Virus record (IMG/VR): IMGVR_UViG_2660238269_000008
Origin: a virus
Taxonomy: Duplodnaviria; Heunggongvirae; Uroviricota; Caudoviricetes
Reading direction: 5' to 3' (one strand)
Length of the DNA: 43,719 nt
Shown here: positions 14,447 through 25,295 of the stretch, piece by piece
How the letters are laid out: each line of letters begins with the position of its first letter
Position numbering within the stretch: the stretch's first letter is position 1
Program-made: the position numbers and the translations under genes
Notes under the pieces: generated by a model
What the model was told of the DNA's origin: nothing
What the model saw: only the letters and a program-made list of their open reading frames with translations
Databases searched by the model: none

Positions 14447-14809
14447 ATGCTCATAGATTTGGTTTTACCTTACCCGCCGACGGTGAACACTTACTGGCGA
14501 CGCCGTGGCAGCACATATTTTGTATCAAAAGCCGGGGAGCGTTATCGCCGGGCAGTGGCGCTTATTGTTCGCCAGCAGCGACTGAAATTAAGCCTGTCCG
14601 GACGGCTGGCAATAAAAATTATTGCAGAGCCACCGGATAAGCGCCGCCGTGACCTGGACAATATTCTGAAAGCACCGCTGGATGCGCTGACGCACGCGGG
14701 GTTGTTAATGGACGATGAGCAGTTTGATGAAATCAATATTGTACGTGGCAAGCCAGTATCTGGTGGACGGCTGGAGATAAGAATTACAGAGGTGGGTGTG
14801 CATGAATAA
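14447..14809 (+). CDS. rusA: Holliday junction resolvase RusA
   Basis: 120 aa; DKRRRDLDNILKAPLDALT and GGRLEIRITE align with RusA RRRDLDNLQKAAFDALT ... GGRLELTITE. Confidence 0.9.
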   Translation: MLIDLVLPYPPTVNTYWRRRGSTYFVSKAGERYRRAVALIVRQQRLKLSLSGRLAIKIIAEPPDKRRRDLDNILKAPLDALTHAGLLMDDEQFDEINIVRGKPVSGGRLEIRITEVGVHE

Positions 14810-15467
14810 CCAGTATTTACAGTTTGTTCGTGAGCAACTCATGATTGCCACTGCGGATCTTAGTGGGTCGACAAAAGGCCAGCTGGAAGTCTGGCAGGAA
14901 AATGCCCTGTTCGATACAGGGCGTTACAGACGCAAAAAAATTCGTTACCGCGATGAGGTAACCGGAAAAATGATCACGCGGGATAATCCCCCGATCCCGG
15001 GTAAACAATCACTGGCGAAAGGCTCATCAATTGCCCTGGTCAGTCCGGTTGAGTTTTCGACATCATCATGGCGACGCGCCGTTCTGTCTCTTGAAGAACA
15101 TCATAAAGCCTGGCTGCTGTGGTGTTACAGCGGTAGCATTTGCTGGGAGCATCAGATCGCGATAACGCAGTGGGCGTGGACTGAATTTAATGCTCAATCC
15201 GGTACCAGAAAAATTGCAGGAAAAACTCTGGTGCGCCTGAAGACGTTGATCTGGTTGGCGGCGCAGGCGGTAAAAGCTGAGCTTTTTGGTGGGGAAGGTT
15301 ACGAATACCAGGAACTGGCGTTACTGGTGGGAGTAACAACCAAAAACTGGTCCAAGACATTTACTGGTCACTGGGTTGCAATGAAACACATTTTTCATCG
15401 GCTGGATAGTGAAGCTTTATTGTTGGTGGAGGGAACACGTTCAAAACAAAAGGCGGCATTTTCATAG
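14802..15467 (+). CDS. Q: Late-gene antiterminator Q (non-lambda Q family)
   Basis: Position between rusA and a promoter plus short-RNA terminator; 222 aa. Confidence 0.65.
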   Translation: MNNQYLQFVREQLMIATADLSGSTKGQLEVWQENALFDTGRYRRKKIRYRDEVTGKMITRDNPPIPGKQSLAKGSSIALVSPVEFSTSSWRRAVLSLEEHHKAWLLWCYSGSICWEHQIAITQWAWTEFNAQSGTRKIAGKTLVRLKTLIWLAAQAVKAELFGGEGYEYQELALLVGVTTKNWSKTFTGHWVAMKHIFHRLDSEALLLVEGTRSKQKAAFS

Positions 15468-15473
15468 CAAAGT

Positions 15474-15502
15474 ATTGCAAAAGTAGATAAAAAGGCATAT
15501 AT
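15474..15502 (+). promoter_or_regulatory. Candidate late promoter PR' (TTGCAA-17-TATATT)
   Basis: Near-consensus sigma-70 elements immediately downstream of Q. Confidence 0.55.
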
Positions 15503-15554
15503 TTCGTGTAAATCTGATATTTTGCCGTTATTATACGTGATGGCAAAGCCACTA

Positions 15555-15585
15555 AAACCCGTGACCGAGCGGGTTTTTACCCCCC
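15555..15585 (+). terminator. tR'-like intrinsic terminator of a short 6S-like late leader RNA
   Basis: AAACCCG-TGACCGAG-CGGGTTTTT hairpin plus U-tract about 50 nt downstream of the candidate PR'. Confidence 0.65.
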
Positions 15586-15719: not shown

Positions 15720-16433
15720 ATGGATGACAGTGCTCTGCTCAGAAACTCTTCACTTTTTGTTGCTTATATGGGCTGTCTCGGATGGGGGAGCGCTTATTTC
15801 TATGGGTGGGGTACTTCATTTTACTATGGCTTTCCATGGTGGGTTGTCGGGGCTGGTGTCGATGATGTAGCACGAAGTTTGTTTTATGCTGTGACAGTTA
15901 TTGTTATATTCCTTATTGGATGGGGAGTTGGTATTGTTTTCTTTTTGGGCATAAAACAAAAGCGCAATATACAAAATTTGAGTTTTATCCGGCTTTTTCT
16001 CGCGATATTGCTGCTTTTTATTCCACCTGTTCTGGAGTTTTCTGTAATTCATCAGCATGTTGAGCCAGATGTACTGATTTTCTGCGTTCTTGCTGCCTTT
16101 GCAATCACGCTTTTTGTCAGGTCTGGAAGAAGACTTGTTTCAGTCAAATGTTTTTCGGAAATGTCTGTTATTCGCCATCACCGAATTGAGTTCATGATGG
16201 CTGGGTTTATGATTTATTTCTGGGCATTCTCTCTTATTGCCGGTTGGTACAAACCACAGTTTAAGAGGGAATATCAGGCGGTCCACTATGAGAATGTATG
16301 GTATTACATTATTGCGCGCTATGATGATCGTCTGGTGTTATCGAAATCATACAGGAGTGGGGGTAAGAAATTCGTTATATTTAATAGCGGAAATATTAAT
16401 GATTTTGAAATTAATACTGTCAGAGTACGTTAA
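15720..16433 (+). CDS. Integral membrane protein (about 5 TM segments), unknown function; moron downstream of PR'/tR'
   Basis: 237-aa ORF; hydrophobic segments rich in G/W/F/Y; AT-rich, unlike the flanking phage genes. Confidence 0.6.
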   Translation: MDDSALLRNSSLFVAYMGCLGWGSAYFYGWGTSFYYGFPWWVVGAGVDDVARSLFYAVTVIVIFLIGWGVGIVFFLGIKQKRNIQNLSFIRLFLAILLLFIPPVLEFSVIHQHVEPDVLIFCVLAAFAITLFVRSGRRLVSVKCFSEMSVIRHHRIEFMMAGFMIYFWAFSLIAGWYKPQFKREYQAVHYENVWYYIIARYDDRLVLSKSYRSGGKKFVIFNSGNINDFEINTVRVR

Positions 16434-16607
16434 AATTTCCTGAGTAATAAAGATTTTACTGCCCGGCATTGAGCGGTTTTTTTATGCCAGAAAAATGGTG
16501 CAGTACATAAAATGTGCAGGTGGTTATTAATACCGGTCTTTCAGCTTGCTGGCTTTTTTGACAAGAGTTATTGGTGTGTCACGTTAACCGGAAAAGGGAA
16601 AAAGACA

Positions 16608-16804
16608 TGCTGAAACAGCAGGATATGACAGAAACCGCCAGAGCAGTTTTTAATGAATTAAGTGCCACCGAACCGGCGACAGTCGGGGAGATTGCACAGA
16701 ATACGTACCTTTCACGCGAACGCTGCCAGCTAATACTGACCCAGCTTGTTATGGCGGGTCTGGCAGACTATCAGTTTGGTTGTTACAGACGCCTTCAGTC
16801 CTGA
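16608..16804 (+). CDS. Small winged-helix-like protein (65 aa)
   Basis: ATG at 16608 preceded by AAAGGGAAAAAG; within ORF 16571..16804. Confidence 0.45.
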
Positions 16805-16955
16805 AGGCTTTTTTATTTGTGGTAAATGGGCGGCTGGTGGGTGTTAGGGGCACTCACCAGCCATCTGCTCATGCGTTGGGGTCACAAGCAAACCTCAGGC
16901 CCATCTGCTTTGCGCAAAAGCGGTATGAGCCTATCAGAGACAGGCTTAATGATCC

Positions 16956-18014
16956 ATGTTTAATACTGTAAAAATATCCAGTTGTGAGTTAATCAACGCC
17001 GACTGCCTGGAATTTATCCGGTCGTTACCCGAAAATTCTGTTGACCTGATAGTCACGGACCCGCCGTACTTTAAAGTGAAGCCTGAGGGCTGGGATAACC
17101 AGTGGACGGGTGATGAGGATTACCTGAAATGGCTGGACCAGTGTCTGGCGCAGTTCTGGCGGGTGCTGAAACCTGCCGGAAGTCTTTACCTGTTCTGTGG
17201 CCATCGCCTGGCATCTGATATCGAAATCATGATGCGTGAACGCTTCAGTGTGCTGAACCATATTATCTGGGCGAAGCCGTCCGGACGCTGGAACGGGTGC
17301 AACAAGGAAAGCCTGAGGGCGTATTTCCCCGCCACAGAGCGCATTCTGTTCGCGGAACATTATCAGGGGCCGTATCGTCCGAAAGATGCCGGGTATGAGG
17401 CGAAGGGCAGGGCACTGAAACAGCATGTGATGGCTCCGCTGATTGCTTACTTTCGTGATGCGCGTGCTGCCCTGGGGATAACGGCAAAACAGATAGTGGA
17501 TGCCACAGGAAAGAAAAACATGGTGTCGCACTGGTTCAGTGCCAGTCAGTGGCAGCTACCGAACGAAAGTGATTATCTGAAATTACAGGCGCTGTTTGCC
17601 CGGGTGGCAGAAGAGAAGCATCAGCGCGGTGAACTGGAAAAGCCCCACCACCAGCTGCTGGAGACGTATACTTCACTGAACCGGCAGTATGCGGAACTGC
17701 AGAGTGAATATAAGCATCTGCGGCGGTATTTTGGCGTGACGGCGCAGGTGCCATACACGGATGTGTGGACGCATAAACCGGTGCAGTACTATCCCGGGAA
17801 ACATCCGTGCGAAAAACCGGCAGAAATGCTGCAGCAGATAATCAGCGCGAGCAGTCGTCCGGGGGACCTGGTTGCAGATTTCTTCATGGGGTCGGGTTCG
17901 ACAGTCAAAGCCGCGATGGCGCTGGGGCGTCGTGCAACTGGCGTTGAGCTGGAGACTGAACGTTTTGAGCAGACGGTCAGGGAAGTACGGGATTTAGTCA
18001 GTCAGAATGGATGA
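16956..18014 (+). CDS. Orphan DNA methyltransferase (amino-MTase, beta class: DPPY motif IV precedes FxGxG motif I)
   Basis: VTDPPY near the N-terminus, DLVADFFMGSGST near the C-terminus, with a charged/coiled-coil-like segment between; no adjacent restriction endonuclease. Confidence 0.85.
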   Translation: MFNTVKISSCELINADCLEFIRSLPENSVDLIVTDPPYFKVKPEGWDNQWTGDEDYLKWLDQCLAQFWRVLKPAGSLYLFCGHRLASDIEIMMRERFSVLNHIIWAKPSGRWNGCNKESLRAYFPATERILFAEHYQGPYRPKDAGYEAKGRALKQHVMAPLIAYFRDARAALGITAKQIVDATGKKNMVSHWFSASQWQLPNESDYLKLQALFARVAEEKHQRGELEKPHHQLLETYTSLNRQYAELQSEYKHLRRYFGVTAQVPYTDVWTHKPVQYYPGKHPCEKPAEMLQQIISASSRPGDLVADFFMGSGSTVKAAMALGRRATGVELETERFEQTVREVRDLVSQNG

Positions 18015-18054
18015 TATTGCAGGATTAGTTACGTACCGTTATTATCCTGCGCCC

Positions 18055-18130
18055 GGCCCTTTAGCTCAGTGGTGAGAGCGAGCGACTCATAATCGCCAGG
18101 TCGCTGGTTCAAATCCAGCAAGGGCCACCA
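18055..18130 (+). tRNA. ileZ: tRNA with CAU anticodon (Ile2, lysidine type; ileZ-like)
   Basis: Hand-folded cloverleaf: acceptor GGCCCTT/AAGGGCC, loop CTCATAA, T-loop TTCAAAT, 3' CCA; closely resembles E. coli ileX as recalled. Confidence 0.85.
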
Positions 18131-18139
18131 TATCACATA

Positions 18140-18216
18140 CCGCCATTAGCTCATCGGGATAGAGCGCCAGCCTTCGAAGCTGGCTGCGCGGGGTTCGAGT
18201 CCTCGATGGCGGTCCA
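18140..18216 (+). tRNA. tRNA-Arg (anticodon read as UCG)
   Basis: Hand-folded cloverleaf: acceptor CCGCCAT/ATGGCGG, anticodon stem CCAGC/GCTGG, loop CTTCGAA, T-loop TTCGAGT, 3' CCA. Confidence 0.75.
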
Positions 18217-18494
18217 TTATCTGCATTATGCGTTGTTGGTTCTGATGAGTGAATCATTGTCTTTTGAGCAACAGGCTATCATATAAGATAGCCTCAGACT
18301 TCCTTGTTTATTCTCGCCGGATGCTTCGTAGATATTTGCAGGCATCTGTATGCAGGGGTATTATTGCGGCATATATCATCCGGAAAAATAAAAACTACAT
18401 GCTGATCCGGAGATGATAGTTACAAGTCCTCCCGGATCCCGCATATTTACTATATTTTATAGATAATTGTTCTTGTTAATATGGAGATGGATAA

Positions 18495-18923
18495 ATGTAT
18501 TGCCGTGCTGTACCTGTTCTTGTTTTGATATTAGCCAGTCTGACAACTGGCTGCACAAAAGATGTATCGACAAATAATCATGATGCTTCTCTGTATCACT
18601 CAGATAAATTAATAAAGTCGCAAAATTTGAGCTCATCGGAACGTACCCCTGATGCCAGTGAAGAAATCCGGCAGTATGCCATTCAGGTCAGGAAAGCCAT
18701 AGAAGAACAGTTAAAGGATGCGAGTAAGTATTCAGGAAAAGAGTGTTCACTGAGAATGTATATGGCCCCGAATGGTCTTCTGCTACAGGTTAAAAGAGAA
18801 AGCGGTGATCCCGATTTATGTCGTGAAGCGATGAATGCAGTAAAGAATGCTGATATACCATCACCACCGTCTTCAGGAGTATATAAAGCATTTAGAAATG
18901 GCGTGCTGGATTTTAAACTCTGA
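18495..18923 (+). CDS. Lipoprotein with a TolA C-terminal domain III-like fold
   Basis: Signal peptide with lipobox LTTG-C; residues 60-142 align with E. coli TolA C-terminus (YAGKTCTLRIKLAPDGMLLDIKPEGGDPALCQAA...PKPPSQAVYEVFKNAPLDFKP vs SGKECSLRMYMAPNGLLLQVKRESGDPDLCREA...PSPPSSGVYKAFRNGVLDFKL). Confidence 0.8.
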   Translation: MYCRAVPVLVLILASLTTGCTKDVSTNNHDASLYHSDKLIKSQNLSSSERTPDASEEIRQYAIQVRKAIEEQLKDASKYSGKECSLRMYMAPNGLLLQVKRESGDPDLCREAMNAVKNADIPSPPSSGVYKAFRNGVLDFKL

Positions 18924-18980
18924 CAGGGGGAGAAGATTTTCTCCTGTCCTGATGATTTTGGGGCGCTGGAAAGATATTGT

Positions 18981-19240
18981 TCTGTGAAGTGTTAAATCCC
19001 TCACAATTCAGTAAGTTGACAGTTGCCTGTCAGACTGAGCATTTGTTAAAAAAATTTCGCATGGTGAATCCCCCTGTGCGGAGGGGCGACTGGTGAACGG
19101 TATGATCTCTTTGATGATCGTAAGCGAGAATACGCGGGTTTGGTGTCACCGGGCTGAACTCACCGGGAGGCACCCGGCACCATGCTCATGGTGATACAGA
19201 AATGCGGCTTCAGCCCCTCTCCGGAGGGGCTTTCTTATGG
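18981..19240 (+). repeat. Isolated copy (U1) of the ~250-bp hairpin-rich repeat family, ending in an intrinsic terminator
   Basis: Carries the three conserved modules tgttaaat.cctcaca, catggtgaatccccctgtgcggaggggc and ctcaccgggaggcacccggcaccatg, then gcccctctccggaggggc plus T-rich tail. Confidence 0.8.
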
Positions 19241-19384
19241 ACAAAAAAAGCCCGCGCTGGGAGACGCGGGCGGCAAGGAATAAACAATAAAACGTGAAGT
19301 AATACTTCAACTGGCGAATAATACCCGACAGTAATCACTCTGCGCAATAGCGTGGCCTTTTTCGAATTGCGGGCTGTAGTCTCC

Positions 19385-19556
19385 CTTCTGCCGGGTGTCC
19401 AGGTTGCAGATTTCTTCATGGGGTAGGGTTCGGCAGTTAAAGCAGCGATGGCGCTGGGGCGTCGTGCAACTGGCGTTGAGCTGGATACCGGGCGTTTTGA
19501 ACAGACTGCGCAGGAAATCAGGGATGTATTTAGCGGGAGCGGTTTGCAGAAGTAAT
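19385..19556 (+). pseudogene. 3' remnant of a second, diverged DNA methyltransferase gene
   Basis: High by-eye identity to the 3' end of the intact MTase (17866..18014), ends at an equivalent stop, but has an in-frame TAG in place of the MTase TCG codon and no 5' part. Confidence 0.75.
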
Positions 19557-19618
19557 CTCCCAAAATGCCATTTTTGGAATATACTGGTATTAAGTCTTTT
19601 TGCTCAGGTTAATTCAAA

Positions 19619-20344
19619 ATGGATGTTGCCTGCTCTGTGGTCCTGATTCGCTATCCGATAGATATTTTTCTTGAAAAAGAAAAAGTTTCACTCGATGCCG
19701 GAAGTGTTATGCTTGTTGCCAGAAATATAAGAGGGCTTTTCTGTGCTTATGCCGACAGAGTGAAAATGGCAGATATAAGTAACAGCGTCGTCAATCAGTA
19801 TCTGGAAAGGGAGTGTGAACTGACGGAGTATACACCGACAAAAATGCCTCTTTATTTGATGTCTGATATTTACAATACGGAACTGGCGGAGGCTTTAATA
19901 ACCCAGCATAGTGAATCCAGTGATACTTTGAAGGATTTCTCTGTTATAACCGCATTTTCATGTATCTCCTTATTTGCAACAGACAGACGTCTGCCATTAT
20001 TTTTGTCCGGTGCTGTAAATAATATCAGCTGTAAAGTAAGGGCTATAATTCAGACCGACATATCGGCAGGCTGGATGCTTGGTGTGATTGCATTACAATT
20101 GCATATGAGCGAAAGCTTGTTGAAGCGAAAACTTAAGGATGAAGGTTATAGCTTTAGTCGGTTGTTGCTGGAGGAGCGAATGCGTGTTGCTGTTAATCTT
20201 GTATGTTTCCAGCGAGAGTGTGGACAAGCGATAGCGGAAAAATGTGGTTACTCAAGTAAGTCCTACTTCATTTCTGTATTTCACCAGTATTATGGTGCAC
20301 CACCTGAGAGCTATGCATATTTGCAGAAAGCAGACGTTATCTGA
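19619..20344 (+). CDS. AraC/XylS-family transcriptional regulator, AppY/EnvY/AdiY-like
   Basis: C-terminal dual HTH aligns with EnvY/AppY (..CGYSS.SYFISVF...YG..P..Y); 241 aa; AT-rich. Confidence 0.8.
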   Translation: MDVACSVVLIRYPIDIFLEKEKVSLDAGSVMLVARNIRGLFCAYADRVKMADISNSVVNQYLERECELTEYTPTKMPLYLMSDIYNTELAEALITQHSESSDTLKDFSVITAFSCISLFATDRRLPLFLSGAVNNISCKVRAIIQTDISAGWMLGVIALQLHMSESLLKRKLKDEGYSFSRLLLEERMRVAVNLVCFQRECGQAIAEKCGYSSKSYFISVFHQYYGAPPESYAYLQKADVI

Positions 20345-20433
20345 TGTTTTTTCATCAGGCATATATTGATTGACTGTATTAGATATAGTCTGAATGTGTT
20401 CAGCATAAAAAGTTATAATCATTTGGTGTTTGC

Positions 20434-20712
20434 GTGAATATTGATGAGAAAATCAGATGTAGCCAACTGTTACAGCGTATTGAAGCCGTCAATGTGGAAC
20501 GAACAAAGGTCTTCAGTCGTCTGACAGTTTTATTTTGTACCCCTGATCGACGTTCAGGTCAGGAGATGGTTCTTCTGGATGTAGATGCACTTCGGAACGT
20601 CTGTGAGGAGTTCACCGCGGCTAATTCGGAGTTACTGAGTCTTGTTCAGGAGTACAACAGAATTGCAGGTAGTAACGGTTTTGATGAAATCAAAATTATA
20701 TCCCGTGGATAA
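20434..20712 (+). CDS. Small hypothetical protein (92 aa) downstream of the AraC-like regulator
   Basis: ORF with GTG start; same strand as the regulator. Confidence 0.4.
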   Translation: MNIDEKIRCSQLLQRIEAVNVERTKVFSRLTVLFCTPDRRSGQEMVLLDVDALRNVCEEFTAANSELLSLVQEYNRIAGSNGFDEIKIISRG

Positions 20713-20954
20713 AACATATCCTGTATATTTATGTTGTTACATACAGGCGCTTTTAGTATCTGCCGCACGGCAGTTGTACTTCAGAATAAGATGCTTTTGT
20801 GACTGGTGGTGTTGTATCTGGGGTTAGCCAGTAGGCAGGTTCAGAGAGTCCGGTGGTAATTATGTGTATGCAGTGGTTGTTGCTGTACCGTGGGCAAGTT
20901 CTGGAACTGGCTTCGTCCATTGTAGATGATTGTTAGCTGGATATCAGTTACCTC

Positions 20955-21980
20955 ATGGAAATGTTAAATGACTCACAATTCGGTTGATGGGCTATTGTCT
21001 GATCGATGGAAGTCTTGTAAAAACGAGCCAGCATAGTGAATCCCCCTGTGCGGAGGGGCGTCTGACATGGTCTCCATAGCGATGGTCACAATACGCAGAT
21101 TCAGTAGTCAGGCTGAATCTACCGGGAGGCACCCGGCACTATGCTGCTTATGGTGTATACATAGCGATCGGCCCCTCTCCGGAGGGGCTTTTTTTGTGCG
21201 GGAAAAGGCTGTGTTGTTAAGTGTTAAATTCCTCACAGTTCAGATGGTTGATGCTTGCCTGTCTGAGGGGGAGTTGTTAAAAAAGTTCTGCATGGTGAAT
21301 CCCCCTGTGCGGAGGGGCGACTGGTGTGATTTGCATCTTTTCTGTTGTAGGCAATGCAAACGCGGGTTCAGGGACACCAGACTGGACTCACCGGGAGGCA
21401 CCCGGCACCATGTTCATGATGATACAGATACGCAGTGTCAGCCCCTCTCCTGAGGGGCTTTTTTATGCAGGAAAAACGCTGTGTTGTGAAATGTTAAATT
21501 CCTCACAGTTCAGATGGTTGATGCTTGCCTGTCTTACGGGGAGTTGTTAAAAAAGTTCTGCATGGTGAATCCCCCTGAGCGGAGGGGCATATCAGCGCAG
21601 GTGTTTCTACTCTATCCTTTCTGTGCGGGTTCAGGTGCTGATACTGAACTCACCGGGAGGCACCCGGCATCATGCATATGGTTAACAGACACGTAGCGAA
21701 GCCCCTCTCCGGAGGGGCTTTTTTATGCAGGGAAAAGGCTGTGTTGTGAAATGTTAAATTCCTCACAATTCATGAGGTTGATGATTGTCTGATTGATGAG
21801 GAGTTTGTTAAAAAAAACGGGCATGGTGAATCCCCCTGTGCGGAGGGGTGATATCGTATCATTTCCTGTGTGGCCGACTGATATCACGGACATTTGTTCA
21901 CCGGGAGGCACCCGGCACCATGCAGTATACAGAGATTAGGCATACATCCAGGCTCCTCATCGCAGGAGCCTTTTTACATG
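20955..21980 (+). repeat. Tandem array of four ~250-bp units (U2-U5) of the hairpin-rich repeat family; candidate structured ncRNA genes
   Basis: Units at about 20955-21196, 21205-21465, 21481-21726, 21741-21980; same conserved modules in each; variable segments keep self-complementarity; each unit ends in a terminator hairpin plus T-run. Confidence 0.8.
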
Positions 21981-22208
21981 TAAAAAAAAACCGCTCCTGG
22001 GAAGAGCGGTTGGCAAGGAAGCAAGGAATAAATAACAAAACGTGAAGTAATTTATTCAGCACCCTAATAATACCTTAGAGTAATCACCTTGCGCAACTGT
22101 AAGGGCGTATTTCTTTTTTGCGGGCTGTTTTTCTGTGTGACTTTTGTGTTTCCGGAGGTCAGCCCGTGCCTTCTCTGACTCAGAACATTATCCCGGCCGG
22201 GAGGATTC

Positions 22209-24173
22209 ATGGCATTTAAACACTACGATGTGGTCAGGGCGGCATCGCCGTCAGACCTTGCTGAACGACTGACACAAAAACTGAAGGAGGGCTGGCAGCC
22301 ATTTGGCAGTCCGGTGGCCATCACGCCTTATACCCTGATGCAGGCCATTGCGGCGGAAGGTGATGTCACCACACCAGTGGCGGTGACCGGTAATGAGGGT
22401 AAGGCGGTGGCTGTCAGTGCCACCAGCGACCCGGAGTATTACTTTGTTGTGGTTCTGGCAGGGCAGTCAAATGGCATGTCGTATGGTGAAGGTCTTCCGC
22501 TGCCGGAGACATATGACCGTCCGGACCCGCGTATTAAGCAGCTGGCGCGCCGCAGTACGGTGACACCGGGCGGTGTCGCCTGTAAATATAACGACATCAT
22601 TCCGGCGGACCATTGTCTGCATGATGTGCAGGACATGAGCCGTCTTAACCATCCGAAAGCGGACCTGTCAAAAGGGCAGTACGGAACCGTGGGGCAGGGG
22701 CTGCATATCGCCAAAAAACTGCTGCCGTTTATACCGGCGAATGCGGGTATTCTGCTGGTTCCGTGCTGTCGTGGTGGTTCAGCGTTCACCACCGGAGCTG
22801 ATGGCACATACAGTGACGCTGGCGGTGCCTCGGAGAATTCAGCGCGCTGGGGTGTGGACAAGCCGCTGTATAAGGACCTTATCGGTCGAACAAAAGCAGC
22901 ACTGAAGAAGAACCCGAAAAATGTGCTGTTTACCGTGGTGTGGATGCAGGGGGAATTTGATTTTGACGGCACGCCCGGAAATCACGCAGCACAGTTTGGT
23001 GCGCTGGTTGATAAATTCCGTGCAGACCTGGCGGATATGGCAGGCCAGTGCGTCAGTGGCTCTGCTGGCAGTGTTCCCTGGATATGCGGGGACACGACGT
23101 ATTTCTGGAAGCAGAAGAACGAATCCACGTACCAGACGGTGTACGGCAGCTATAAAAACAAAACGGAAAAGAATATCCATTTCGTACCGTTCATGACGGA
23201 TGAGAACGGGGTGAATGTGCCGACGAACAAACCGGAAGAAGACCCGGACATTCCGGGTATCGGGTATTACGGTTCGAAATGGCGTGACAGCTCAGCCACC
23301 TGGACGTCACAGGACAGGGCGAGCCATTTCAGCACCTGGGCACGCCGGGGGATTATTTCCGACCGTCTGGCAACGGCGATTCTGGTGCACGCCGGGAGAA
23401 CCGCTGAATTCATTACCGGAAAACAGCCTGATATGGTGAAGCCCACCGTACCTTCCGGTGAAGGTCCGGAGAGAGAGGCGGAAGCCCCGGTCAGTAACCG
23501 AACCCTGATGAGTCTGCTGGCATCCGGCGAAGACCTGGCATCACAGGGCTGGCGCTATTATCACAAACCGGCGGGCGGAGACAGTGTTAACAAAAACATT
23601 GCTGAAGCGGTGGTCAGTGATGCGGGGGCTACGGGAGGTAAGGCTCTGCAACTGAACAAACCGGAAAACCACATCTGGTTTCTGGAGCATGATGCAGCCG
23701 GACAGGGTGCGGAGTTACTGAAGAAGGGCGGACGTGTGAGCGTACGGTTTAAGTTGCCGGGTTCACTGGTGCCGAATCAGTTTGCCCTGGGCATTTACTG
23801 GCAGTTGTCGTCCCTGCCGGAGGGGGTGACGCTGTCAGGAGAAGGTAACGATATGCTGATGTCCTTCTTCCTGCAGACGGATACGACGAACCTGAACGCG
23901 ATGCATCACAGGAAGCCGAATGCGAAGCTGGATACATTCGGGGTCTTTGATAACGGATGGCACACGCTGGCTTTTGAGTTTGCCGGAAACAACAGCATTC
24001 AGGTGACACCTGTACTGGATGAGAAACGGGGAGCGGCGTTCACACTGGTGAAGTCACCGGCATCGGGGGCGGCGGACAAACTGCAACTGACCGATATATC
24101 AAAATCGGCGACGTATACGCTGCTGATTGACAGCATTGCGGTGGAAGTGAACAGCACAGACACTGCGGCATGA
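22209..24173 (+). CDS. nanS-p: Prophage 9-O-acetyl-sialate esterase NanS-p (SGNH/SASA esterase)
   Basis: 654 aa; GQSNGMSYG esterase motif; size and position (immediately upstream of the lysis cassette) match the NanS-p genes that follow stx in Stx phages. Confidence 0.75.
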   Translation: MAFKHYDVVRAASPSDLAERLTQKLKEGWQPFGSPVAITPYTLMQAIAAEGDVTTPVAVTGNEGKAVAVSATSDPEYYFVVVLAGQSNGMSYGEGLPLPETYDRPDPRIKQLARRSTVTPGGVACKYNDIIPADHCLHDVQDMSRLNHPKADLSKGQYGTVGQGLHIAKKLLPFIPANAGILLVPCCRGGSAFTTGADGTYSDAGGASENSARWGVDKPLYKDLIGRTKAALKKNPKNVLFTVVWMQGEFDFDGTPGNHAAQFGALVDKFRADLADMAGQCVSGSAGSVPWICGDTTYFWKQKNESTYQTVYGSYKNKTEKNIHFVPFMTDENGVNVPTNKPEEDPDIPGIGYYGSKWRDSSATWTSQDRASHFSTWARRGIISDRLATAILVHAGRTAEFITGKQPDMVKPTVPSGEGPEREAEAPVSNRTLMSLLASGEDLASQGWRYYHKPAGGDSVNKNIAEAVVSDAGATGGKALQLNKPENHIWFLEHDAAGQGAELLKKGGRVSVRFKLPGSLVPNQFALGIYWQLSSLPEGVTLSGEGNDMLMSFFLQTDTTNLNAMHHRKPNAKLDTFGVFDNGWHTLAFEFAGNNSIQVTPVLDEKRGAAFTLVKSPASGAADKLQLTDISKSATYTLLIDSIAVEVNSTDTAA

Positions 24174-24541: not shown

Positions 24542-24757
24542 ATGTACCAGATGGAAAAAATCACAACAGGTGTGTCATACACCACGTCAGCGGTGGGAAC
24601 GGGCTACTGGTTCCTGCAGTTGCTGGACAGGGTTTCCCCGTCTCAGTGGGCGGCAATAGGCGTGCTGGGGAGTCTGCTGTTTGGTCTGCTGACGTACCTG
24701 ACGAACCTGTATTTCAAAATTAAAGAAGACCGTCGTAAGGCGGCGCGGGGAGAGTAA
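24542..24757 (+). CDS. S: Class II holin (phage 21 S21-type pinholin) with dual-start motif
   Basis: [71 protein letters not shown] closely matches S21. Confidence 0.9.
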
Positions 24758-24761
24758 GCTG

Positions 24762-25295
24762 ATGAGCAGGAAATTCCGCTATGGTTTATCAGCGGTCGTT
24801 CTGGCGCTGATTGCTGCAGGTGCTTCTGCGCCTGAAATCCTCGACCAGTTTCTTGACGAAAAAGAAGGTAACCACACCACGGCATACCGTGATGGTGCGG
24901 GTATCTGGACCATCTGCCGTGGTGCCACCCGGGTGGATGGTAAGCCTGTCGTCCCCGGCATGAAGTTGTCGAAGGAAAAATGCGACCAGGTTAACGCCAT
25001 TGAACGTGATAAGGCGCTGGCATGGGTGGCGAAAAACATCAGAGTGCCACTGACCGAACCTCAGAAAGCGGGGAGCGCGTCATTCTGTCCTTACAACATT
25101 GGCCCCGGTAAGTGTTTCCCGTCGACGTTTTATAAACGAATTAATGCAGGCGATCGCAGGGGAGCGTGTGAAGCGATTCGCTGGTGGATTAAGGACGGTG
25201 GGCGTGATTGCCGCACACGTTCAAATAACTGCTACGGACAGGTTATTCGTCGTGACCAGGAAAGCGCATTAGCTTGTTGGGGGATAGATCAGTGA
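24762..25295 (+). CDS. R: SAR endolysin (lysozyme, R21-like)
   Basis: N-terminal signal-anchor-release segment [20 protein letters not shown] followed by lysozyme-like domain; follows the pinholin. Confidence 0.9.

Follow-up and report, generated by a model that had tools for sequence, protein, structure and literature searches.

What occupies the site of the Shiga toxin genes in a prophage that resembles a Shiga toxin-converting (Stx) phage on both sides of that site? This question is raised by IMG/VR record IMGVR_UViG_2660238269_000008, a 43,719-nucleotide sequence of a tailed phage (Caudoviricetes). By "the window" we mean this whole sequence, at its full length. Between the gene for antiterminator Q and the lysis genes, the window has a slot that is filled with cargo genes, or morons. 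The best explanation, which we consider very likely, is that a complete lambda/21-like prophage has here, from Q to the lysis genes, a moron slot with the backbone of an Stx2a phage and non-toxin cargo, and that the slot is a fusion of two slot units.

An initial annotation of this region, which was made from the sequence alone, reported no stx-like open reading frame (ORF), and this held up. When we used tblastn to compare StxA and StxB from phage 933W (NC_000924) to all 43.7 kb of the window, the best E values were 4.8 and 0.48, respectively, which is chance level. Similarly, alignments showed no homology in the window to the stx segments of 933W or of the Stx2a phage Stx2_95 (LC567838). We also considered whether the window might contain remnants of stx, and we rejected this idea because tblastn over the full window yielded chance matches only. 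So, if Stx-converting phages are defined by having stxA and stxB in the late operon, then this is not one.

The order of genes in the late backbone of Stx phages is another matter. Q, the PR'/tR' region, the tRNA cluster, the small RNA gene STnc100, nanS-p (a sialate O-acetylesterase gene), and the holin and endolysin genes are all present and collinear, with nucleotide identities of 82-97.5%. The features of this backbone, and those that lie among them, are as follows (lengths of proteins are in amino acids, or aa).

14802-15467, plus strand: antiterminator Q, phage-82-type family (PF06323, E 1e-90; RefSeq "bacteriophage antitermination protein Q")
15475-15503, plus strand: candidate late promoter PR' (TTGCAA-17-TATATT; consensus scan and reading of the sequence)
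15554-15578, plus strand: candidate tR' hairpin with T-run (consensus scan and reading of the sequence)
15720-16433, plus strand: predicted membrane protein, 237 aa, moron-like, 40% GC (phrog_1521, E 3e-85; no Pfam match)
16607-16804, plus strand: winged-helix (TrmB/MarR-like) ORF, 65 aa (weak matches to winged-helix families in Pfam); first gene of the segment that is shared with Stx2a phage
16791-16808, plus strand: terminator-like hairpin at the end of the 65-aa ORF (terminator scan)
16956-18014, plus strand: N6/N4 DNA methyltransferase (MTase; PF01555, E 7e-44; PADLOC MTase_II, E 2e-162)
18055-18130, plus strand: tRNA-Ile2, anticodon CAU, ileZ type (ARAGORN; Rfam tRNA, 72.5 bits)
18140-18216, plus strand: tRNA-Arg, anticodon UCG, argN type (ARAGORN; Rfam, 55.1 bits; alignment)
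18230-18275, plus strand: degenerate 5' stub of a third tRNA, argO (alignment)
22209-24173, plus strand: NanS-p-type sialate O-acetylesterase, 654 aa (DUF1737, SASA, and DUF6645, all above Pfam cut-offs)
24542-24757, plus strand: class II (P21 S-type) holin (PF04971, E 7e-33)
24762-25295, plus strand: endolysin (phage lysozyme; PF00959, E 6e-24)

At base-pair resolution, positions 16473-18237 of the window correspond to positions 3974-5737 of Stx2_95, with 97.5% nucleotide identity over 1765 nucleotides (nt). This segment contains the 65-aa ORF, the MTase, ileZ, and argN. The next part of Stx2_95 (5738-7182) comprises the rest of argO, stx2A, stx2B, and 46 nt, and it has no counterpart in the window. 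In its place, the window has a 763-bp module at 18238-19000 that encodes a protein with a TolA domain. Homology then resumes: 19001-19392, which holds the first of five STnc100 genes and its leader, is 91.9% identical to the intergenic region between stxB and nanS-p (7183-7577 of Stx2_95). Past 19391, the window returns to the 3' end of the MTase gene, whose last ~115-165 nt recur at 19391-19506 in this alignment. Collinearity with Stx2_95 comes back at 21763 and continues into nanS-p, at 84.7%. Overall, the nanS-p side has 84-92% nucleotide identity to Stx2_95.

The homology to 933W is interrupted similarly: the left arm stops at 18271, and the right arm begins at 21763, which corresponds to 46 nt past stxB. 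The tRNA segment is 92.7% identical to 933W, STnc100 and most of nanS-p are 82% identical (falling to 69% at the 3' end of nanS-p), and the lysis genes are 92% identical. Thus, the window shares with Stx2_95 and 933W the order Q, PR'/tR', (65-aa ORF, MTase), ileZ, argN, slot, STnc100, candidate minus-strand small RNA, nanS-p, P21-type holin, and endolysin. It differs from them in that it lacks stxAB, has only a stub of argO, and has the TolA-domain lipoprotein followed by a second, partial slot unit. Also, its Q is of another type than theirs. Given these alignments, we regard the likeness to Stx phages as homology, not chance, and we take the shared backbone to be the 65-aa ORF, the MTase, ileZ, argN, one STnc100 with its leader, nanS-p, the P21-type holin, and the endolysin.

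The initial annotation had proposed that the order Q, PR'/tR', MTase, tRNA-Ile, tRNA-Arg, cargo, nanS-p, holin, and endolysin mirrors that of 933W. Each of these elements (candidates, for PR' and tR') is where it was said to be, and the order is collinear with Stx phages on alignment. The MTase does not fit 933W, which has no MTase gene at this position, just a 3' remnant of ~70-110 nt; the layout with an MTase is of the Stx2_95 type. Also, the list omitted the two ORFs (237 aa and 65 aa) between Q/PR' and the MTase. We looked for both of the findings that the annotation had named as counting against it (stx-like sequence in the window, or a gene order that fails to match on alignment), and we found neither. 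As for 933W itself, its positions 3967-4077 match the last ~110 nt of the MTase gene and lie 5' of the annotated tRNA promoter pT. Because 933W keeps only this 3' end, we conclude that the ancestor of its tRNA-stx region had an MTase, in a layout such as Stx2_95 has.

The likeness to Stx phages is confined to the interval from Q to lysis. The window is 100% identical to part of the chromosome of Escherichia coli 2011C-3911 (NZ_CP015240.1, approximately 3,978,466-4,022,184), an O79:H7 clinical isolate whose depositors describe it as an E. coli that makes Shiga toxin (STEC) (PMC4929515). According to the RefSeq annotation, it is a complete-looking lambdoid prophage, with integrase, excisionase, exo, a repressor region, replication genes, RusA, Q, lysis genes, terminase, and lambda-type head and tail genes. 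The virion (head and tail) genes are 92-93% identical to those of the lambda/21-like siphoviruses PhiR5_1 and PhiR12; they are not of the Stx-phage type and are unlike those of 933W. The early region is a separate mosaic. For the prophage as a whole, we therefore ruled out an Stx-phage backbone: the nearest relatives of the structural genes are in PhiR5_1, in PhiR12, and in siphoviruses that resemble phage 21, and the mosaic of the early region differs as well.

Within the slot, we found these features.

18495-18923, plus strand: lipoprotein-type protein, 142 aa, with the C-terminal domain of TolA (domain III) only (PF06519, E 6e-23)
19030-19242, plus strand: STnc100 copy 1 (RF02076, 172.4 bits; terminator 19212-19231)
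19243-19320, minus strand: candidate small RNA, first copy (terminator 19271-19250; alignment)
19391-19555, plus strand: 3' remnant of a second MTase gene, pseudogene (direct repeat, 84-90% identical to 17859-18001; RefSeq pseudogene)
19619-20344, plus strand: AraC/XylS-type regulator, 241 aa, YdeO/GadX-like group (PF12833, E 3e-12; PF00165, E 1e-10; phrog_1450, E 5e-92)
20434-20712, plus strand: ORF92, a conserved phage ORF of 92 aa that is unannotated in RefSeq (phrog_2873, E 1e-46)
21002-21197, plus strand: STnc100 copy 2 (RF02076, 119.5 bits; terminator 21170-21189)
21261-21470, plus strand: STnc100 copy 3 (RF02076, 140.8 bits; terminator 21440-21459)
21532-21730, plus strand: STnc100 copy 4 (RF02076, 141.7 bits; terminator 21704-21717)
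21792-21981, plus strand: STnc100 copy 5 (RF02076, 141.3 bits; terminator 21950-21971)
21982-22065, minus strand: candidate small RNA, second copy (terminator 22011-21989; direct repeat, alignment)

The initial annotation described this cargo as a TolA-like lipoprotein, a repeat unit, an MTase remnant, an AraC-like regulator, and a repeat array. All of these are present. ORF92 was missed, and the repeats were not recognized as STnc100. Similarly, it reported two tRNAs where 933W has three. Two are indeed intact, so the full ileZ-argN-argO set is not found upstream of the slot, but the third is not simply absent: a stub of argO remains at 18230-18275. The start of its acceptor stem is intact and its anticodon arm matches at 13 of 16 positions; similarity is lost beyond that. 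The homology of the window to Stx2_95, to an Stx2k phage, and to phage mEp460 all ends at 18237, within the region of this stub.

Repeats within the window and the alignment to Stx2_95 both show that the end of the MTase gene is duplicated, and so is the segment with STnc100 and its leader. Because both are duplicated, we interpret the slot as two slot units in tandem, with the MTase remnant as the junction scar where the second unit begins. Unit A would consist of the MTase, tRNA-Ile2, tRNA-Arg, the argO stub, the TolA-domain lipoprotein, and STnc100 with its leader. It would be joined to unit B about 73 nt short of the would-be start of nanS-p. Unit B would then consist of the MTase 3' end (the scar), the AraC-type regulator, ORF92, four STnc100 genes, and nanS-p. 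A prophage with unit A alone is found in E. coli O16:H6 strain CU37RT-2: it has an MTase remnant, tRNA-Ile, tRNA-Arg, the TolA-domain gene, one STnc100, and nanS-p. The window follows CU37RT-2 at 95.9% and 85.8% identity and diverges from it 73 nt before the ATG of nanS-p. In mEp460, ORF92 and TolA-domain genes flank the single STnc100, and Rac-like prophages have TolA-domain genes in the same slot. Position 18237 and the CTCACAATTCAG box may be the points at which cargo is exchanged.

Base composition also marks the cargo as morons of a lambdoid late operon. The TolA module (18238-19000) is 40.8% GC and the module with the AraC-type gene and ORF92 (19556-20960) is 41.0% GC, versus 51-56% for the backbone. 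The cargo as a whole has 40-41% GC, relatives of its genes occur in other orders in other phages, and this is standard moron mosaicism.

The repeats in the slot are copies of STnc100. The single unit (~19000-19260) and the array of four units (~20960-22000, with units ~260 nt apart) correspond to five full-length matches to the Rfam family RF02076 (STnc100). All of them cover model positions 1-206 and score 119.5-172.4 bits, as compared to a gathering score of 47. Copy 5 is collinear with the single post-stxB copy of 933W, as homology resumes at 21763. A single STnc100 is found in 933W, Stx2_95, the Stx2k phage, mEp460, and a Rac-like prophage. We conclude from these alignments that one STnc100 directly after stxB is the native layout of Stx phages.

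The five copies do not appear to be recent duplicates. Their scaffolds are 68-89% identical, but each has a unique internal segment of ~40-50 nt (15-44% identity over aligned columns). A set of ten copies from E. coli shows compensatory changes, such as GCATAGTG paired with CACTATGC in copy 2; the closing stem of copy 2 has a compensatory G-C to A-U change. Across 46 copies from several genera, 19 of the 27 pairs have double changes, and 95.3% of cells are paired, compared to 80.7% for shuffled alignments and 38-47% for slid partners. The covariation score was 0.47; shuffles gave 0.18, slid partners gave no more than 0.10, and none of 500 shuffles reached the observed values. The fold of STnc100 is maintained by compensatory changes.

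We searched for promoters and terminators by scanning the region for consensus matches and comparing the results to shuffled sequence. Terminator-like sites are enriched (22 found versus 8.9 +/- 3.5 expected), and each STnc100 unit ends in an intrinsic terminator. A conserved block upstream of the STnc100 units (TTGCCT...TGTTAAAAAA) is visible in the alignment. Because the consensus scan did not call it, and because the Rfam model counts this block as part of the RNA, we do not claim a promoter for STnc100.

STnc100 is known from Stx phages, where it lies 75 nt after stx2 (PMC12370729). E. coli EDL933 has 11 dispersed STnc100 loci, with one copy per prophage; these are transcribed without induction as discrete RNAs, and one was verified by Northern blot (PMC5331693). 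EcOnc27, an RNA that binds Hfq and is encoded immediately downstream of stx2B, partly overlaps STnc100; its over-expression alters the levels of the fimZ and espA transcripts, and sequence variants in the stx2-adjacent STnc100 region are features that predict hemolytic uremic syndrome (HUS) (PMC12711010). The related PasD RNAs adjoin the esterase gene and are abundant Hfq partners in RIL-seq (bioRxiv 10.64898/2026.05.13.724894). Like STnc100 and PasD, the units in the window match the full model with a terminator, lie beside the esterase gene, and are downstream of the stx position. In contrast to the published STnc100 loci, with one copy per prophage, and to the PasA/PasD copies, which are stated to be non-tandem, the window has four units in tandem, each with a unique insert. 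We did not find any description of tandem STnc100 arrays in the literature that we searched.

To see how common such arrays are, we scanned IMG/VR contigs and species-representative genomes for two invariant STnc100 cores that are 230-260 nt apart. At least one tandem pair was present in 83 IMG/VR contigs and in 8 species-representative genomes (from Superficieibacter, Pantoea, and Leclercia), which rules out the idea that the array is unique to the lineage of the window. The covariance model confirmed arrays of 3-6 copies there, always directly upstream of the genes for holin, endolysin, and Rz. Arrays in which 2-6 STnc100 copies stand in tandem, directly upstream of lysis genes, are widespread among the prophages of Enterobacterales. 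The arrays in those genera sometimes hold tRNA genes or isrI-like RNA among the units. Among otherwise near-identical prophages, the number of copies in the array varies. For instance, S19-141 has two STnc100 copies (at 5043-5493 of its sequence, L007), and in KY175 and HY220605 the matching span is ~260-270 bp shorter, which is consistent with three array copies instead of the four in the window.

Several other explanations for the slot need to be weighed against the fusion of two units on an Stx2a-phage backbone. The prophage might once have been an Stx2-converting phage in which argO-stx2AB was deleted and the TolA module took its place, so that the slot would be that of a degraded Stx phage and not of a lineage that never had stx. 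An Stx2a phage matches the flanks at 97.5% and 91.9% identity, the segment that gave way consists of exactly argO, stx2AB, and 46 nt, what remains is a stub of argO (the tRNA directly 5' of stx), and the host is described as an STEC strain (PMC4929515). Nevertheless, we doubt this history. The argO stub is far more diverged than the flanks are, so either the event is old or the stub arrived with foreign DNA. The same TolA junction is found in an O16:H6 prophage that is not of the STEC type and has a different Q and an ompC gene; together with the decayed stub, this argues for an old and stable lineage. TolA-domain genes also occupy the slot of the non-Stx phage mEp460 and of Rac-like prophages, in ~770 genomes, and the head and tail genes are not of the Stx-phage type. 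The reverse event, with stx displacing other cargo, fits the data equally well. Another explanation for the duplicated structure is an artifact of PacBio assembly. Repeats of 260-400 nt can mislead assemblers, and the genome announcement states that the chromosome was not closed (PMC4929515). But the same 8-kb arrangement is present in four IMG/VR contigs and in at least 73 complete genomes that were sequenced independently. The number of independent genomes makes an assembly error unlikely, and we give this explanation almost no weight.

The STnc100 units themselves could be mainly cis-acting: they could be stacked terminators or insulators for the lysis genes, elements for RNA processing or stability, or RNAs that bind a protein or a ligand, with the insert as an unconstrained peripheral hairpin. 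In every genus that we examined, the arrays are directly upstream of holin-endolysin-Rz, and the intrinsic terminator of each unit and the excess of terminator-like sites fit with this view. Also, the loops and junctions are near-invariant while the stems covary, and a conserved stem encloses the variable segment, unlike in small RNAs with a conserved seed. On the other hand, the discrete RNAs from STnc100 loci in uninduced EDL933, including the one seen by Northern blot (PMC5331693), the binding of Hfq by the overlapping EcOnc27 and the effects of its over-expression on fimZ and espA (PMC12711010), and the abundance of PasD RNAs among Hfq partners (bioRxiv 10.64898/2026.05.13.724894) all point to roles in trans. 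A mainly cis-acting role seems unlikely to us, but cis and trans roles are not mutually exclusive, and a cis role is a live alternative or an additional role. Far less probable still is that the array is decaying, functionless intergenic DNA that was duplicated by recombination. The scaffold does differ by 11-32% among copies, the inserts cannot be aligned, and the copy number ranges from 2 to 4 between strains. However, all five copies are full-length matches far above the gathering threshold, they have retained their terminators, their stems are kept by compensatory changes, and similar arrays are maintained in several genera.

We return to the reading of the slot as two fused units with non-toxin cargo. 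Four points weigh against it or limit it. The roles of the cargo are proposed from homologous domains, and phrog_5772, the family of the TolA-domain protein, has no known function. In NCBIfam, the scores of the AraC-type protein fall far short of the equivalog cut-offs (119.8 versus 348 bits for YdeO, over the full length, and 92.6 versus 500 for GadX). PR', tR', and the moron promoters were called only by their match to a consensus, and the region has no excess of promoter-like sites (11 found versus 12.4 expected from shuffles). Finally, the sequences do not show in which direction the exchange at the stx position went. With these provisos, the view of the slot in the initial annotation, as Stx-style with alternative morons, is supported. 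It is also common and documented, as ordinary prophage mosaicism. Three results merit keeping: the map of the exchange site to the base pair, the recognition that the repeats are STnc100 genes, and the multi-copy STnc100 arrays before the lysis genes of many enterobacterial prophages.

From what is established for lambdoid late operons, we predict that, once the prophage is induced, Q loads the RNA polymerase at PR', a short way past the Q gene. The Q-modified polymerase would then pass tR' and every terminator in the slot, so that the MTase, the tRNAs, the cargo, the esterase, and the lysis genes would form one late transcript. In the lysogen, independent expression is probable for the low-GC cargo genes and for the STnc100 units, and the stacked STnc100 terminators would keep stray transcription out of the lysis genes. 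Given the transcripts and the Hfq binding of their homologs in EDL933, Sakai, and enteropathogenic E. coli, the STnc100 copies may be Hfq-associated regulatory RNAs. More speculatively, the tandem arrays of 2-6 units in Escherichia, Pantoea, Superficieibacter, and Leclercia, with their near-invariant core, covarying stems, unique inserts, and individual terminators, might be a conserved and undescribed pre-lysis module. It might serve as a battery of small RNAs with different targets, or else as a cis insulator or Q-dependent gate, and the conserved 5' box and the tRNA cluster might be the homology anchors for cargo swaps, including those of stx. We offer this as a tentative proposal, and it could easily be wrong.

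As for the cargo proteins, residues 54-141 of the TolA-domain protein align end to end with residues 333-420 of E. coli TolA in PDB structures, at 51% identity (E 2e-25) and with neither cysteine lost. Like TolA of the Tol-Pal system (PDB 1S62, 3QDP, 1TOL), it has a complete domain III. However, TolA has an N-terminal membrane anchor (domain I) and a long helical domain II, and the protein in the window instead has a lipoprotein-type signal and a short linker. Because it lacks domains I and II, it is not TolA. The NCBIfam models for TolA cover it only at profile positions 297-386 of 387, and it scores 103 bits, compared to a cut-off of 213. For a protein of 142 aa with this build, the RefSeq name "tolA: cell envelope integrity protein TolA" is therefore an over-annotation. 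Its signal sequence ends in LTTGC, and that of the homolog from mEp460 (67% aa identity) ends in the canonical IIGC. A promoter-like site lies 5' of the ORF, at 18335-18364, although such sites are not enriched over shuffles. Based on its domain, the lipoprotein might be a periplasmic decoy or competitor for the partners of TolA (group A colicins, g3p of filamentous phages, or TolB).

We examined the prevalence of this gene, and of the arrangements discussed below, in a set of 5426 complete E. coli genomes. This allele is present in 123 of them and an 82%-identical relative is present in ~770 more, for a total of ~900. In every case that we examined, TolA-domain-III genes were carried by prophages. 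In mEp460 and in a Rac-like prophage, two TolA-domain paralogs are in tandem, with the second at 25% identity. Our search of the literature did not find any paper on phage-encoded TolA-like proteins.

The AraC-type protein has the double helix-turn-helix at its C terminus (PF12833 and PF00165). Its scores mark it as a relative of YdeO and GadX, not an ortholog. Like AppY (from prophage DLP12), PatE (Z0321), PsrA (Z1789), and PsrB (Z2104) (from O157:H7), YdeO, GadX, and GadW, it has a size of ~240-250 aa and a C-terminal HTH_18/AraC domain. Like the prophage-encoded members of this group (AppY, PatE, PsrA, and PsrB), it has low GC content and is carried by a prophage; its best family match is YdeO, followed by GadX. 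PatE, PsrA, and PsrB control the GAD acid-resistance system (PMC10877973). PsrA and PsrB are linked to effector loci and Pch regulators (PMC10877973), whereas the gene in the window is in a late-operon slot; we liken them by description, not by sequence. The only match to an EDL933-derived phage fragment has 45% identity and covers just the DNA-binding half. By domain homology, the protein might regulate stress genes of the host, as do YdeO, GadX, PatE, and the Psr proteins. In phiSTEC1575-Stx2k, an AraC-type gene at 4002-4715, whose product is 59% identical to that of the window, takes the place of the MTase immediately 5' of the tRNAs and stx2k. Because it lies beside the tRNAs and stx2k there, this family of regulators can be co-resident with the toxin. 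ORF92 has an intact counterpart in mEp460 (59% aa identity), which is unannotated there as well.

The complete 8-kb arrangement is present in at least 73 of the 5426 genomes, at 98-100% identity, and many of these strains are named as STEC or come from cattle, beef, or dairy. Roughly 3600 E. coli genomes have the MTase, tRNA, STnc100, and nanS-p segments that flank the slot. The module with the AraC-type gene and ORF92 is in 79-89 genomes, and the exact combination of two units and five STnc100 genes is in ~73-89. In IMG/VR, the four contigs mentioned above repeat the 1+4 layout of STnc100 genes. In another IMG/VR contig, which has no protein cargo, the same Q, 237-aa ORF, 65-aa ORF, MTase, and tRNAs precede four STnc100 units and nanS-p. 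In the phage collection, no record covers more than 54% of the region.

Toxin-free slots with other contents are found in several lambdoid prophages that carry nanS-p. An O157:H7 prophage has Q, the 65-aa ORF, MTase, STnc100, AgvB, nanS-p, and lysis genes. DS566-1 has three intact tRNAs, then TerB-family and DUF3927 genes at the stx position (5389-5981), and two STnc100 units. CU37RT-2 has the tRNAs, the TolA-domain gene, STnc100, and nanS-p. These prophages resemble the window in having the same backbone and no toxin; the window differs from them by combining two cargo units and by having five STnc100 copies. NanS-p has been reported in several prophages per STEC genome, including non-Stx ones (PMC8065619, PMC10462455). 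Because this is documented, the description of the slot as toxin-free is correct but was already known. In DS566-1, the STnc100 units are followed by a match to AsxR at the gathering threshold (63 bits).

These comparisons imply that the position of the Shiga toxin is a general exchange site, with the tRNA cluster on the left and the STnc100 small RNA gene on the right. The same backbone can hold the toxin, TerB, a TolA-domain lipoprotein, an AraC-type regulator, or nothing. This should help with the interpretation of stx-negative "Stx-like" prophages in STEC genomes, and it is relevant to typing schemes that rely on markers that flank stx (Q, tRNAs, nanS-p). In O157, the group to which the AraC-type regulator belongs is known to reprogram both acid resistance and type III secretion. 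The recent report that variants in the stx2-adjacent copy predict HUS (PMC12711010) makes the STnc100 arrays worth attention.

For the remaining genes of the backbone, the 237-aa ORF, a predicted membrane protein, is a further moron. It lies past the PR'/tR' candidates and before the segment that Stx phages share, and an IMG/VR contig (L020) has an ORF that is 95% identical to it. In Stx2_95, the ORF 5' of the MTase has 97% aa identity to the 65-aa winged-helix ORF, and so does an ORF of the Stx2k phage. The MTase is 98.6% identical (aa) to that of Stx2_95, and we found no partner nuclease for it nearby. We therefore rejected the idea of a defense system: PADLOC matched only the MTase, with generic type II or orphan models, and none of the cargo proteins. 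The 65-aa ORF had a single marginal match in PADLOC, below threshold (SWIM_XIII, E 4e-4). The tRNA at 18055-18130 is Met according to ARAGORN and Ile according to RefSeq; it is 100% identical to ileZ of 933W.

The NanS-p-type protein is 72% identical (aa) to NanS-p of 933W over its full length and is near-identical over residues 100-400, the catalytic core. It also has the GQSN catalytic motif (as LAGQSNGM). As in NanS-p, DUF1737 is at the N terminus, SASA is the catalytic domain, and DUF6645, which is lectin-like, is at the C terminus. Its domains and its similarity to characterized NanS-p indicate that it is an esterase of this type. The lysis cassette is of the phage-21 type, with a holin of the P21 S family followed by a lysozyme, whose gene is 92% identical (nt) to R of 933W. 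The endolysin is probably of the signal-anchor-release (SAR) type, given its hydrophobic, Gly/Ala-rich N terminus.

Lastly, candidate small RNAs are encoded on the minus strand directly after STnc100 copies 1 and 5. Each has its own terminator, a common 31-nt box, and a -10-like GGTATTAT. We considered whether these might be AsxR or AgvB and dropped the idea. We found no match to either of these families in Rfam at E <= 1 across 12 kb, and for the two stretches themselves, at E <= 10, we found no Rfam family, just chance matches that were driven by the terminators. Because there is no Rfam match, we record the element as an unmodeled candidate. In position and layout, the two candidates are like AgvB and AsxR, the anti-small RNAs of other prophages, with a different body. 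The same minus-strand variant is present in the Stx2a phage Stx2_95.

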